Positions 1-64,000 of a stretch of DNA of 64,000 nt are shown piece by piece; positions within the stretch are counted from its first letter, which is position 1, and every line of letters starts with the position of its first letter. The position numbers and the translations under genes are program-made. The stretch covers positions 2,539 to 66,538 of the forward strand of contig NZ_JBPOGG010000012.1 of the NCBI RefSeq assembly GCF_051251825.1, given 5' to 3'. Under the pieces are notes generated by a model that worked only from the letters and a program-made list of their open reading frames with translations, was not told the origin of the DNA and searched no databases. Source of the stretch: Nonlabens sp. (GTDB lineage: Bacteria; Bacteroidota; Bacteroidia; Flavobacteriales; Flavobacteriaceae).

Positions 1-106
1 TTTCTCCTGTCTGTGCGTTGTTTGTTTGAATGCTGTATTGTTGCGCTTTCGCGAAAGCGGAACCACAAAAAACATAAACTAAAACCATCAATAATGCTCT
101 ATTCAT
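1..106 (-). CDS. Partial CDS running off the left edge; secreted protein with Sec signal peptide
   Basis: Not in ORF track. ATG at 106 (minus) reads MNRALLMVLVYVFCGSAFAKAQQYSIQTNNAQTGE with no stop to position 1; hydrophobic core ending A-K-A|Q. Confidence 0.7.
   Translation of the reverse strand, partial: MNRALLMVLVYVFCGSAFAKAQQYSIQTNNAQTGE
44..59. repeat. 16-bp palindrome copy 1 (perfect), encodes AFAKA in signal peptide
   Basis: CGCTTTCGCGAAAGCG followed by GAAC. Confidence 0.95.
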
Positions 107-130
107 AATATGTGCTTAAAGTCTAAAAAT

Positions 131-159
131 AAAAAAAGCCTTTCAGATAGAAAGGCTTT
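131..159 (-). terminator. Intrinsic terminator after DUF3276 gene
   Basis: Stem aaagcctttc/gaaaggcttt, T-run on minus strand. Confidence 0.75.
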
Positions 160-181
160 AAGTAATAATTATGTGTGTTTC

Positions 182-571
182 CTAGATGTCGTCAAAGCTT
201 ACATCTGTAAAACTCTTTTTAGGTTCTTCGATATCAGTCGTTAACGGAGTTTCCTTTGCTGCGTGAACCGCTGGGTCATAATCTGCTTGATGTCTGTCTG
301 AAATGACCTCGCCACCTTTTTCTTTAATGATGAATTGAGTCATCTCTGCAAGTGTACCTTCAAACTCTGCAAAATCTTCTTTATAAAGGTAGATTTTGTG
401 TTTTTTAAAGTGGAAACTTCCATCATCGTTAGTGAACTTTTTGCTCTCTGTGATGGTTAGGTAGTAATCGTCTGCTTTTGTGGATCTCACGTCAAAGAAA
501 TAAGTGCGTCTTCCTGCACGAACTACTTTTGAAAAAATATCTTCCTGATCTTTGTAATCTCTATCGGCCAT
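182..571 (-). CDS. DUF3276 / PUR-family ssDNA- and RNA-binding protein
   Basis: IFSKVVRAGRRTYFFDVRSTKADDYYLTITESKK motif. Confidence 0.85.
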   Translation of the reverse strand: MADRDYKDQEDIFSKVVRAGRRTYFFDVRSTKADDYYLTITESKKFTNDDGSFHFKKHKIYLYKEDFAEFEGTLAEMTQFIIKEKGGEVISDRHQADYDPAVHAAKETPLTTDIEEPKKSFTDVSFDDI

Positions 572-599
572 TATTCTGTTTCAAGGTTATGAAGGCACC

Positions 600-607
600 A
601 AAAATAT
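600..607 (-). promoter_or_regulatory. Bacteroidota -7 promoter element for DUF3276
   Basis: TATTTTTG on minus strand about 29 nt upstream of ATG 571. Confidence 0.55.
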
Positions 608-669
608 AAAAAAATGTTAAATAGCAAAGCGATACTTGAAATATTATAGGAAATAAAAGGTAGCAGAGT

Positions 670-1308
670 TTAATTGGACTCTTTCACCTGATATTCTGGT
701 TCTGGTTCACCGAGTCGATCAGGTACTCCTTTAAATATATCATTCACGGCGCAGCTCAACTCTGGAAATAGCACTGAGGTTACTGTGTCACCTTCAGTTA
801 ACATGCGGTGTGCTTGATATTTTCCAGTTGAATCTAAATGATGTAAGCTTACCGTGCGTCTCAGATAATCAACAATCCAGTATTCTTGCACTCCAGCTTC
901 TTCATAAAGGTCAAATTTATCCTTGATTTCTTTTTTTGAGTTGCCTTTAGATAATACTTCAACAACTAAATCTGGAGCACCATGACAACCACGTTCATCA
1001 AGTTTACTCGCATCACATACTACGCAAACATCTGGTTGTAAGGTCGTGGCTTGCTTAGTTTGAGGAAATAATTCAACATCAAATGGAGCGATGAACGTAG
1101 AACAACCGTTATCGTTTTTATGTTTATCTATGATTTTTGCGATTTCAAAAACCACTTTTTGATGCGACATACTAGGTGCAGGACTCATCTTGTAGATTTT
1201 GCCTTTGAAAAGTTCTACACGTTCTTTAAATCTCCACAATAGATAGTCGGCATAACTGTAAGTTTTGTCGAGGTCTAAATCGTTGATGTCATAAATATAC
1301 TGTGGCAT
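670..1308 (-). CDS. Uma2 family (DUF820) endonuclease-like protein
   Basis: ERVELFKGKIYKMSPAP, QPDVCVV, GAPDLVVEVLS, YEEAGVQEYWIVD. Start moved from TTG 1314 to ATG 1308 because 1312-1319 is a TAAATTTG element. Confidence 0.85.
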   Translation of the reverse strand: MPQYIYDINDLDLDKTYSYADYLLWRFKERVELFKGKIYKMSPAPSMSHQKVVFEIAKIIDKHKNDNGCSTFIAPFDVELFPQTKQATTLQPDVCVVCDASKLDERGCHGAPDLVVEVLSKGNSKKEIKDKFDLYEEAGVQEYWIVDYLRRTVSLHHLDSTGKYQAHRMLTEGDTVTSVLFPELSCAVNDIFKGVPDRLGEPEPEYQVKESN

Positions 1309-1330
1309 ACTCAAATTTAAACAAAATGAT

Positions 1331-61321: not shown

Positions 61322-61349
61322 AATTTTTAAGCCTCAATAATTATATCAC

Positions 61350-61387
61350 AAAAAAACTCCAGTTCCTATCAATGGAACTGGAGTTTT
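61350..61387 (+). terminator. Intrinsic terminator
   Basis: aaaactccagttcc-tatcaat-ggaactggagtttt. Confidence 0.78.
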
Positions 61388-61480
61388 ATGTTTTAATCGT
61401 TATTCAATTAAATTGTGTTATTTTTCTGTAATTTTTAATAAAAGTTTATTTTTATTTCTTGTTAGAAAAAGACCTCAACT

Positions 61481-62077
61481 ATGATACTTTCAAAATTTCA
61501 GTTAAAATACATTTTAACAGCGCTTCTATTCAGTGCTTCATTATTTAGTGCTCATGGGCAACAAGAACCTGAAGAATATCTCAGCGCAAATATCGGTTTT
61601 GGCTATGCTTATCCTAGAACAGATATTGACATTAGTGCAAGTGGTTTTTATGCAAATGCAGAGTATGCTTATGTTTCTAGTAAATGGTTTAGCTTTAGGC
61701 CATATCTAACTTATTTAAATGCTTCATTTGACGAGGAGAACTCAAATCCTAATCTTGTTGCAGCCGGATATGAAATTTCGGCAAACGCACTTTCTCTTGG
61801 AGCAAAGTTTAGATTAACAGTGCCTATTCCATATGTTGCACCTTTTATGGAGCTAGGAATAGGGACGTCTTTTGGTAGTTTTAGAAAAAATAATGGTTTT
61901 GAAGTTGTAGAGGTAAATGGTCTAAGCTATCATATTCCGGTTTCTATAGGACTTGCCATAGGAAAGCGACATAGAACAGAAATTGCCTTTGATTACTACA
62001 TCCATTCTAAACCCGAGCAAATCACTGGTGGTGCAGCAATAGGAATTACCATACCGCTAGAATTAATTAAGGGATAA
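61481..62077 (+). CDS. Outer-membrane beta-barrel protein
   Basis: Signal peptide AHGQ; PFMELGIG, YHIPVSIGL. Confidence 0.6.
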   Translation: MILSKFQLKYILTALLFSASLFSAHGQQEPEEYLSANIGFGYAYPRTDIDISASGFYANAEYAYVSSKWFSFRPYLTYLNASFDEENSNPNLVAAGYEISANALSLGAKFRLTVPIPYVAPFMELGIGTSFGSFRKNNGFEVVEVNGLSYHIPVSIGLAIGKRHRTEIAFDYYIHSKPEQITGGAAIGITIPLELIKG

Positions 62078-62109
62078 TAAAAAATGATGTCGAGGTAAAT
62101 ATTGAACAT

Positions 62110-62149
62110 AAAAAATCCCGAATTCTTAATCAAAGAATTCGGGATTTTT
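62110..62149. terminator. Bidirectional intrinsic terminator
   Basis: aaaaatcccgaattctt-aatca-aagaattcgggattttt. Confidence 0.85.
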
Positions 62150-62166
62150 GTTTTTAAGTCAATCGA

Positions 62167-63558
62167 CTATAAATGTATCACCTCACCATAAGCATCGGCA
62201 ACGGCTTCCATAACCGCTTCACTCATTGTAGGATGTGGATGGATCGCTTTTAAAACTTCGTGACCAGTAGTTTCTAGTTTACGACCTAGAACAGCCTCAG
62301 CAATCATGTCAGTCACTCCAGCACCTATCATGTGACAACCTAGCCACTCGCCATACTTAGCGTCAAAGATTACTTTTACAAATCCATCTTTTGCACCACT
62401 AGCACTTGCTTTTCCAGATGCAGAGAACGGAAATTTACCTACTTTGATATCATAACCAGCTTCTTTAGCTTGAGCTTCAGTCATACCTACGCTCGCAATT
62501 TCTGGAGTAGAGTATGTACAACCTGGTATGTTTCCATAATCAAGTGGCTCCACATGCATGTCTGCTATTTTTTCTACACAAAGAATTCCTTCGGCACTGG
62601 CAACGTGCGCTAGTGCTGGACCAGCAGTGATATCACCTATCGCATAATAACCTGGAATGTTAGTCTGGTACCAGTCATTAACTAATACTTTACCACGATC
62701 TGTAGAAATTCCTACTTCTTCTAGACCTATTCCAGCGATGTTGGTTTCGATTCCTACGGCACTTAAAACGATATCAGCCTCAAGAACTTCTTCTCCTTTT
62801 TTAGTTTTTACCGTTGCTTTCACACCACTTCCTGAAGTATCTACACCAGTCACCTCACTAGAAGTCATGACCTTAATACCTGATTTCTTAAAGCTACGCT
62901 CCATTTGTTTAGAAACATCTACATCTTCTACAGGAACGATACGGTCTAGATATTCTACTATAGTAACCTCAGTTCCCATAGAGTTATAGAAATAAGCAAA
63001 CTCAACACCTATCGCACCAGATCCTACGATGATCATTTTCTTAGGTTGCTTCTCCAGCGTCATCGCTTGACGGTAACCTATTACTTTCTTACCATCTTGT
63101 GGTAAACTAGGTAAGCTGCGAGATTTTGCACCAGTTGCTATAATAATATGTGTTCCTTCAACAGTTGAGGTAGAACCATCTTCAGCTTTTACCTCAATTT
63201 TCTTTCCTTTTTTAACGGTACCGTAACCCATGATTACGTCTATCTTATTCTTCTTTAATAAGAATTGAACACCTTTACTCATACCGTCAGCAACGTCACG
63301 AGAGCGTTTTACAACGGCATTAAAATCTTTATCTACACCAGTAACTTTAAGACCGTAATCTTCGGCATGGTTGAGGTAATTGAATACATCAGCACTTTTT
63401 ATAAGTGCTTTTGTAGGGATACAACCCCAATTCAAACATACTCCACCTAGAGATTCCTTCTCTACAATCGCAGTTTTCAAACCTAATTGAGACGCGCGTA
63501 TTGCAGTTACATATCCACCAGGTCCACTACCTAAAACGATTACATCATATTTACTCAT
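62167..63558 (-). CDS. lpdA: Dihydrolipoyl dehydrogenase
   Basis: [31 protein letters not shown]; start MSKYD; TATTTTTG (minus) at 63581-63588. Confidence 0.95.
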
Positions 63559-63633
63559 ATCTGTCAATTTTTAAGAGTCACAAAAATATGGAATAAAGTC
63601 CATAGGATTGTAAATTTGCACAACCTTATTCTT

Positions 63634-64000
63634 ATGTATAAATCAATAATTCGTCCATTACTTTTTGCCTTTGATCCAGAGGCAGTTCACCATTTTTCTT
63701 TCAAGAGTATTAAATTATTGAGCAAGTTGCCTGGTTTTAGTACGCTTTCGCGAAAGCGTTACAAACAAAATCATCCTTCCTTAAAAAGAGAACTCTTCGG
63801 ACTCACATTTGAGAATCCTGTGGGAATGGCTGCTGGATTTGATAAAGATGCCAAAGCATTTAAAGAATTTTCAAATCTAGGTTTTGGATTTATAGAAATA
63901 GGAACACTCACTCCAAAGCCGCAAGATGGAAATCCTAAGCAACGATTGTTTAGATTAAAGAAAGATCAAGCGATTGTAAATAGAATGGGATTTAATAATG
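63634..64000 (+). CDS. pyrD: Quinone-dependent dihydroorotate dehydrogenase, partial (runs off right edge)
   Basis: Not in ORF track. [20 protein letters not shown]...[11 protein letters not shown]...[26 protein letters not shown]...VNRMGFNN; TAAATTTG at 63611-63618. Confidence 0.92.
63743..63758. repeat. 16-bp palindrome copy 15 (perfect), in pyrD (TLSRKR)
   Basis: TA-CGCTTTCGCGAAAGCG-TT. Confidence 0.95.

Follow-up and report, generated by a model that had tools for sequence, protein, structure and literature searches.

The 16-bp palindrome CGCTTTCGCGAAAGCG was evaluated in a 64,000-nucleotide stretch of a Nonlabens sp. genome and in related genomes. This stretch, referred to as the window, corresponds to C4:2539-66538 of the source genome (G000), which comprises 3.30 Mb in 49 contigs with a guanine–cytosine (GC) content of 36.2%. 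Eleven perfect copies and four copies with one mismatch were found in the window by pattern search, and a match was produced by none of the 100 dinucleotide-preserving shuffles of the window. The positional conservation of the word, its even spacing and its selected flanks indicated a DNA-level function that is maintained by selection, and the same argument was made by Xu et al. for the cyanobacterial palindrome HIP1 (PMC5861425). The word is tentatively read, at slightly less than even confidence, as a selected DNA word that probably serves as a recombination or DNA-exchange tag for resident DNA. To our knowledge, no such word, Chi sequence or uptake signal is known in the Bacteroidota. No published description of the word was found when the 16-mer was searched alone and the 14-mer and 10-mer were searched alongside other terms, and the palindrome is not mentioned in the Nonlabens dokdonensis genome paper.

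Abundance, spacing, flanks and conservation of the word

The tally for the whole G000 assembly was 451 perfect copies, together with 197, 51 and 37 copies with one, two and three mismatches, respectively. Confinement of the abundance to the window, which the preliminary description of this stretch had named as a refutation, was ruled out by these copies. The expectation for the perfect 16-mer was 1.3e-4 copies in the whole genome when bases were independent and identically distributed. The earlier estimate that chance could not account for the copies, based on a GC content judged by eye, was upheld because the measured GC content was 36.2%. The density of perfect copies was 1.1–1.8 per 10 kb on each contig longer than 30 kb, with the exception of C2 (0.9). 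The counts of nested words were 618 for TTCGCGAA, 610 for the 10-mer, 583 for the 14-mer, 451 for the 16-mer and 140 for the 18-mer; according to these counts, the word was nearly all-or-none. The 14-bp core was GCTTTCGCGAAAGC, which was usually extended to 16 bp, and no second hyper-abundant palindrome was present in G000. Outside the palindromes, the half-site GCTTTCG had 84 copies, which corresponded to the 10th percentile among 7-mers of the same composition and denoted no enrichment. Hence, the full palindrome was the unit, which points to a dimer on duplex DNA and not to a short word read as a single strand. A pair of 7-mer Chi words placed back to back was rejected for the same reason.

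The spacing was explored for the 648 sites with zero or one mismatch. The gene-aware null consisted of the same number of sites placed at random with the observed spacer preference in 300 runs. The 612 observed intervals had a mean of 4.8 kb and a coefficient of variation of 0.486, whereas the value for the null was 1.01 (minimum 0.92). Moreover, six intervals were shorter than 1 kb and 23 were longer than 10 kb, compared with ~125 and ~77 in the null, respectively, and the largest gap over all contigs was 21 kb. The word was thus kept at approximately one copy per 5 kb, with crowding and long gaps both avoided. The spacing disregarded gene boundaries, and no exclusion zone of the ori or ter type, i.e., no gap beyond the 21 kb, was observed on any contig. 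The contigs shorter than 14 kb (149 kb in total) contained 7 sites against the 30 expected (P = 4e-7).

A polar context of ~75 bp surrounded each copy, in which the 5' side was G/T-rich and C-poor and the 3' side was its mirror image. In the ~30-bp flanks, C accounted for 10% on the left and G for 9% on the right against a background of 18%, with T and G enriched on the left and A and C on the right. This skew was seen in spacers and in every reading frame, whichever strand the gene was on, and the flanks of other CGCG sites, which served as the control, had no skew. The spacer consensus was T7-N-ATTA-core-TAAT-N-A7, and TGTTG, GTTGT and GTTGGT were enriched 5–10-fold on the 5' side of the core on either strand. 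A strand-specific rule over ~30 nt suggests a process that runs along one strand on each side after the binding of a dimer. The copies had been described earlier as solitary and without a U-tract, which agreed with the present results; their flanks were unique and, with T-rich sequence on the 5' side of the core and A-rich sequence on the 3' side, were the opposite of a terminator. Three defining features went beyond that description, namely, the origin by substitution, the even spacing and the ~30-bp polar flanks.

The positions of the sites relative to genes were evaluated with a crude map of long open reading frames (ORFs), which was 90% coding. According to this map, 385 of the 648 sites were inside ORFs, and roughly half of the copies sit inside real genes. 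In the window, the genic copies were located in ruvX, an RNA methyltransferase gene, a TonB-dependent receptor gene, a histidine kinase gene, a Kdo-kinase-like gene and the gene of a cargo protein of the type IX secretion system (T9SS). The 288 sites more than 150 nt from an ORF start were distributed over all three frames (AFAKA 153, RFRES 78, LSRK 57), and amino-acid changes are imposed by the word on hundreds of proteins. The site density was 6–9 per 10 kb in spacers, 5–7-fold higher than that in genes (1.3); convergent spacers were not preferred, and the spacer copies were often located 2–30 nt past a stop codon. Furthermore, 55 sites (~8% of all) encoded ...AFAKA|Q... in signal-peptide-like N-termini, at the junction of the signal peptide and the mature protein, which suits the core and the flanks alike. 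Selection for the AFAKA peptide was rejected as the cause because it covers only these ~8% of the sites. Close pairs of copies were also considered as the borders of gene cassettes, and this was rejected because the genes between two copies were ordinary housekeeping genes.

The origin of a genic copy was traced at the ruvX site, where the alignment of 30 congeners contained zero indels. The states of this site were RKYTVQ or NKYAIR; SNFAQG, HAFVDK or NAFAEA; and, in ~20 congeners, xAFAKA with all the synonymous positions of the word fixed. The absence of indels and the presence of intermediate and motif-free states indicated that the word was written over existing codons by substitution. Conservation was examined by comparing the window with syntenic 80-kb stretches of five congeners, which were 73–79% identical to it, and most of the alignable sites were occupied in all five. 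The divergence over ten orthologous sites was 2.0% for the 14-bp core, 11.6% for the two outer bases and 20–23% for the flanks. The one-mismatch variants were often common to a subclade with a perfect outgroup and hence represented inherited decays. Sites were occasionally gained or lost, and in two spacers the presence or absence of the word was accompanied by a change in length of 10–30 bp. In the comEA-like gene, the word (RFRES) was present at the same codon position in Nonlabens and Dokdonia, and motif-free genera read YRKEG, YRNQN and similar; some sites may thus be older than the divergence of the two genera.

Distribution across taxa, transferred DNA and phages

All 36 other species of the genus examined contained 175–738 perfect copies, and zero copies were found in 24 genomes from other families of the order. 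When one genome per genus was scanned for 300 Flavobacteriaceae genera, high counts were found only in Nonlabens, G307 (154) and G327 (549). The scan of named genomes identified the word in Nonlabens and Dokdonia, the latter being G327. In the AddB tree, ten motif-bearing genomes were located on one side of one branch (support 92/95); a single origin of the word may be possible on this tree, although long branches may mislead. The view of the preliminary description that the word is a lineage-specific, sequence-encoded chromosome signal gained support from the genome-wide counts, the clade restriction, the ~10-fold better conservation than that of the flanks and the lack of any character of a repetitive extragenic palindrome (REP) or a miniature inverted-repeat transposable element (MITE). 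In a 20-kb sample of Dokdonia (L329, G327 C3:10-30 kb), more TTCGCGAA cores were observed (9 in 20 kb), several of which had one perfect and one degenerate half. This suggests a looser outer specificity in that genus.

Approximately 28 other genera contained 1–12 copies, which were clustered in several cases, and the clusters in the four genomes examined belonged to a heavy-metal resistance island. This island carried a resistance-nodulation-division (RND) efflux pump, an outer-membrane factor, two P-type ATPases, a multicopper oxidase and an AraC regulator (L150, L151-L153, L154-L157), and its identity to G000 C47:48.8-57.8 kb was 92% in one recipient and 68–76% in two others. The palindrome was kept at fixed positions in the island, including pairs exactly 933 bp apart. 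These pairs in other genera were considered as a clue to the reader protein and were set aside because they were located in the RND-efflux, P-type-ATPase and copper-oxidase island. The exported island still has the word in several other genera, and the word is thus a practical barcode for DNA exported from the clade.

A search for dialects, i.e., other dispersed palindromic words, in 20-kb samples from 14 motif-free genera gave none, and the repeats that it turned up were a CRISPR-like array (L322 15265-15718, G077; identical repeat of at least 40 nt with a period of ~75 bp) and a 237-bp tandem repeat (L325 12-2856, G083). In the third motif-bearing genus (L328, G307 C1:10-30 kb), two further families of dispersed repeats were present in 20 kb (GAATTGCGGTTATGCGTTGTTG... 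and ...AACAACACATAACGCTCAT...), which look like REP- or MITE-type elements unrelated to the palindrome.

Ten IMG/VR contigs (36–47% GC) had 2–4 copies each at distances of 3–20 kb, including two proviruses and one 30.6-kb genome that was 95% complete and had four copies. The phage copies were located inside a head-maturation protease gene and an HNH gene and adjoined portal, capsid and terminase genes; the capsid protein of one of these phages was 45% identical to its counterpart in the Cellulophaga phage phi39:1. The cultured lytic Nonlabens phages P12024S and P12024L, both of which encode Erf, an exonuclease and SSB, had zero copies even at two mismatches. Phages without their own recombinases are reportedly enriched in host Chi, and the distribution described for coliphages resembles this contrast. 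The contrast would also arise if only chromosome-resident DNA acquires the word. Homologues of the structural genes of the motif-bearing phages were not found in G000 in a search that was not exhaustive, and a gene transfer agent or a prophage was rejected on this basis as the source of the word.

Candidate readers and competing explanations

Under the preferred reading, in which the word tags resident DNA, the core is probably recognised as duplex DNA by a sequence-specific protein with two-fold symmetry (a homodimer). Copies arise in place by point substitution at low-cost spots, such as spacers, the regions where signal peptides are cleaved (AFAKA|Q) and protein segments that tolerate change, and are then retained, and selection with diminishing returns would hold approximately one copy per 5 kb on all resident DNA. 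The likeliest role of this 'self-DNA' tag would be to steer DNA of the resident or of conspecifics towards exchange or repair that depends on RecA. It would act either at DNA entry, in the manner of uptake sequences and HIP1, or during the processing of DNA ends, in the manner of Chi, and the G/T-rich 5' flanks would be the strand that RecA receives on each side. Single strands rich in G and T are those that RecA prefers, and the uptake sequences in Haemophilus are evenly spaced. Such a tag is consistent with the depletion in small contigs, with the export of the word on transferred islands and with its occurrence in some phages. Furthermore, HIP1 is conserved and quasi-periodic (PMC5861425) and was recently linked to transformation (PMC13756078; bioRxiv 10.1101/2024.09.10.611283), which points the same way, i.e., to a role in recombination or exchange. 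The abundance, the origin by substitution, the conservation, the even spacing, the polar flanks, the clade restriction, the depletion in small contigs and the presence in some phages are shown by the data, whereas a dimeric reader, a connection with recombination and the stage of action are inferences.

The search for a reader and several properties of the word weighed against this tag. No reader was found, and none of the six candidate families tested tracked the word. The PilB/PilT-type ATPase (PF00437) was present in 0 of 10 motif-rich genomes; with the same search, 13 of 14 control genomes and 6 of the 32 other genomes tested were positive, and one marginal fragment was found among the latter. 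The uptake route of Neisseria, Haemophilus and cyanobacteria is therefore missing. G000 had AddA-like and AddB-like ORFs, recognised from their motifs and architecture, as well as ComEC and a ComEA-like protein. However, ComEC was universal, motif-free genera included, as was the ComEA-like protein (a membrane anchor with two helix-hairpin-helix domains), in which Nonlabens and Dokdonia had no distinctive shared substitutions, and AddB orthologues were found in 38 of 38 genomes tested and were not clade-specific. Hence, none of the three tracked the word. The divergence of AddB relative to RNase Y had a ratio of 5.1 in the motif-bearing lineages versus 3.8, a modest excess from pairs that were not independent. 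RecC was absent family-wide. One ParB was present in each genome with or without the motif, with no extra ParB/Noc paralogue, and G000 had canonical parS separate from the word. The C5 methyltransferase (PF00145) was patchy and was missing in 4 of 12 Nonlabens genomes and in both other motif-rich genera; the coupling to methylation that had been offered as one option gained no support from C5 methyltransferases, which were missing in six motif-rich genomes. N6 and N4 methyltransferases were sought by motif in G000, in a search that missed the C5 gene of that genome. In addition, the half-site was unenriched, whereas the known Chi sequences are 5–8 nt, asymmetric and read as single strands, and the phage pattern came from a handful of contigs of unknown lifestyle. 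We know of no demonstration of natural competence in Nonlabens, Dokdonia or the third genus. The even spacing and the dimer-type palindrome fit a chromosome-architecture protein just as well.

Among the known systems, the word is closest to HIP1, uptake sequences and Chi, and it is a member of none of them. HIP1 (GCGATCGC, cyanobacteria) and the word are both lineage-wide, hyper-abundant palindromes in genes and spacers that are conserved at orthologous sites; the distribution of each is not random (quasi-periodic or even), and a connection with DNA exchange is suspected for each (PMC5861425, PMC4390886, PMC13756078). The word is GCTTTCGCGAAAGC and not the octamer GCGATCGC or a close variant of it; unlike HIP1, it is 14–16 bp long instead of 8, ~5–10-fold sparser, in the Bacteroidota and bordered by polar 30-bp flanks, in genomes in which the type IV pilus ATPase is absent and no methyltransferase so far tracks the word. 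The uptake signal sequences (USS) of the Pasteurellaceae and the DNA uptake sequences (DUS) of the Neisseriaceae are likewise clade-specific, occur in all reading frames of ordinary genes and combine a strong core with weaker AT-rich flanks; they are also rarer in recently acquired DNA (here, the small contigs), present in some phages and common to related genera. However, they are asymmetric 9–12-mers at ~1 per kb, which are read by the type IV pilus machinery, whereas the word is palindromic, at 1 per 5 kb, and found in genomes without the PilB/PilT-type ATPase. The inner-membrane channel ComEC and a ComEA-like candidate for the periplasmic DNA receptor, which go with USS/DUS, are present here but do not discriminate, as motif-free genera have them too. 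Chi, which is read by RecBCD or AddAB, resembles the word in its frequency of ~1 per 5 kb, in marking resident DNA and in the G/T-rich strand 5' of the word, as expected for the RecA tail. In a small sample, the presence of the word in some phages and its absence from the two lytic phages encoding their own recombinases are parallel to Chi, and the AddA-like and AddB-like ORFs are candidates for the cognate helicase-nuclease. However, Chi is a 5–8-nt asymmetric sequence that is read in single-stranded DNA and skewed with replication, whereas the whole 14-bp palindrome is the unit of the word.

In its most far-reaching form, which is rather unlikely, the tag would be the first 'self-DNA' recombination word in the Bacteroidota with a new mechanism. 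The dimer would act on both sides and pass two G/T-rich 5' flanks to RecA, which would make the word a bidirectional, Chi-like landing pad or an uptake or exchange signal without type IV pili, and the spacing would be set by selection on the reach of degradation or the length of the exchanged pieces. Few lineages are known to have genome-wide identity words (HIP1, USS/DUS and Chi), and each of these words has been informative on DNA exchange or repair. The present word is long enough to be unambiguous, its flank rule is a handle on the mechanism, and it offers a direct route to fishing out the reader protein. Genetic tools for marine flavobacteria may also benefit from it, in the way that the transformation of cyanobacteria benefits from HIP1.

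In the main rival explanation, which is doubtful but a serious contender, a protein of the nucleoid or of chromosome architecture binds the word; a dimer every ~5 kb would anchor loops, set supercoil domains or position the chromosome and would have no role in DNA exchange. The perfect palindrome with unenriched half-sites, which points to a dimer on duplex DNA, and the strongly even spacing with a ceiling on gaps are favourable to such a protein, as are the phased T- and A-tract flanks in spacers, which could bend DNA. A nucleoid role of HIP1 was proposed from its periodicity by Xu et al. (PMC5861425). The sites of Noc (NBS), SlmA (SBS), MatP (matS) and ParB (parS) are also 12–16-bp dimer-type palindromes scattered in genes and spacers, and gyrase at REPs or bacterial interspersed mosaic elements (BIMEs) is a further comparator. 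However, the sites of Noc, SlmA, MatP and ParB number in the tens, are regionally biased and have a dedicated, often ParB-like, protein, whereas the word has ~650 sites, ten times the number in any known system of the kind, with no regional gap and no ori- or ter-type exclusion zone (largest gap 21 kb), and an extra ParB/Noc paralogue is lacking beside the ordinary parS. Moreover, the strand-specific flanks (no C on the 5' side and no G on the 3' side over ~30 nt) suggest strand tracking or single-strand reading and not groove contacts, and an architecture protein gives phages no evident reason to acquire sites.

A function-less molecular drive, which is unlikely, would keep creating or restoring the word in the DNA that replicates in these cells through biased repair or gene conversion, such as a very-short-patch-like process or template switching at quasi-palindromes. 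Copies arose by substitution at the expense of the protein sequence and were present in some phage genomes, as such a drive would have it, and similar proposals were made for HIP1 (PMC4390886). However, the positions were retained across species in which neutral sites are saturated, and neither the avoidance of close pairs with the ceiling on gaps nor the selected 30-bp flanks are predicted by a drive. The motif-rich genomes have no C5 methyltransferase in common, no repair system with a 14-bp specificity is known, and the two lytic phages of the same hosts are without a copy.

A role at the RNA level, where the transcribed hairpin would be a terminator, a processing site or a stabiliser, is very unlikely. 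The 5–7-fold higher density in spacers and the frequent location 2–30 nt after a stop codon suit this role, and a 6-bp stem with a 4-nt loop is possible, but genes contain approximately half of the copies, which occur there in either orientation and in each frame, and the spacing ignores gene boundaries. The hairpin is weak (−4.3 kcal/mol as DNA), and the individual flanks do not lengthen the stem beyond the expectation from composition; selection on a hairpin alone would also leave some bases free. The sequence 3' of the word is A-rich and not U-rich, proper hairpin-plus-T terminator-like sites adjoin as separate elements, and no Rfam family matches at the sites. An intrinsic terminator, with a GC-rich hairpin and a U-tract, was rejected from the A-rich 3' flank, the weak hairpin and these separate hairpins nearby.

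An origin of the word as what is left of a mobile element or as one of its ends (a REP with its RAYT transposase, or a MITE) is highly improbable: hundreds of dispersed short palindromes are common to REP/BIME systems and the word, and two spacers have the 10–30-bp length differences noted above, but REPs are extragenic, imperfect, clustered and inserted, whereas the word is perfect, solitary, genic in roughly half of its copies and made by substitution at the one traced genic site (ruvX, no indel), with no conserved flank, inverted-repeat arm or target duplication, and its copies are evenly spaced and positionally conserved instead of polymorphic. A REP/MITE or an extension of the hairpin was likewise rejected because the individual flanks were no more complementary than their composition predicts.

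Copies in the window and neighbouring features

The copies in the window are listed in the table below, together with the comEA-like gene. All 11 perfect copies were found at the coordinates of the preliminary description. Its count of four one-mismatch copies was also correct, with the coordinates 36116 and 40922 confirmed and the other two corrected to 46485 and 57054 from 46486 and 57055.

Table. Positions of the palindrome in the window and of the comEA-like gene in G000.
Position	Match	Context	Congeners and remarks
44..59	perfect	AFAKA-coding, in the cleavage region of the signal peptide; minus-strand gene with its start near 106 (MNRALLMVLVYVFCGSAFAKA|QQ)	
4400..4415	perfect	spacer, 20 nt upstream of ATG at 4436	perfect or one mismatch in 5/5 congeners compared
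7000..7015	perfect	divergent spacer, 32 nt upstream of starch-synthase-like gene at 7048	
14296..14311	perfect	spacer; a distinct hairpin-plus-T terminator-like site (14228-14253) lies 43 nt upstream	
19644..19659	perfect	spacer between two minus-strand genes	retained in three congeners
19948..19963	perfect	in T9SS C-terminal sorting domain of an 892-aa protein (HAFAKA)	304 bp from the preceding copy, a rare close pair
24667..24682	perfect	in histidine-kinase gene, reads RFRESE	
27018..27033	perfect	spacer	
31225..31240	perfect	in Kdo/WaaP-kinase-like gene, reads LSRKR	perfect in two congeners, decayed to two mismatches in a third
36116..36131	one mismatch (last G to A)	in ruvX, reads TAFAKA	orthologous site shows substitution origin, no indel
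40922..40937	one mismatch (T6 to C)	in RNA methyltransferase gene (HAFAEA)	inherited decay, because the mismatch is common to three congeners and two others are perfect
46485..46500	one mismatch (C1 to A)	near 5' end of ORF 46324-46959	present in 5/5 congeners
50807..50822	perfect	in TonB-dependent receptor gene (DAFAKA)	present in 5/5 congeners (one mismatch in one)
57054..57069	one mismatch	spacer, 25 nt upstream of the start (57029) of a gene on the minus strand	
63743..63758	perfect		perfect in 5/5 congeners
C1:597.8-598.7 kb (G000)		comEA-like gene	loci L400-L409 compared

At ~58830 in the window, in the spacer after the hairpin AGCAACTCGCAAGAGTTGCTTTTTTT, the palindrome was present in four congeners and the G000 sequence was 10–11 bp shorter; the loss in G000 looks like an 11-bp deletion of the inner palindrome. 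The region 7048-14205 was a glycogen or alpha-glucan cluster, with a starch-synthase-like GT5, a branching-enzyme-like GH13 with CBM48 and a GH31, and the palindrome was present in both bordering spacers. A 6S-Flavo RNA (Rfam RF01685, 100.5 bits) was located at 54056-54167 on the plus strand, just upstream of and overlapping the RNase Y gene; therefore, the listed TTG start of this ORF at 54127 is probably too far upstream. Moreover, the gene at 22738-23112 on the plus strand encoded a four-helix-bundle protein of the 23S-rRNA-intervening-sequence type (PF05635, 96.5 bits).

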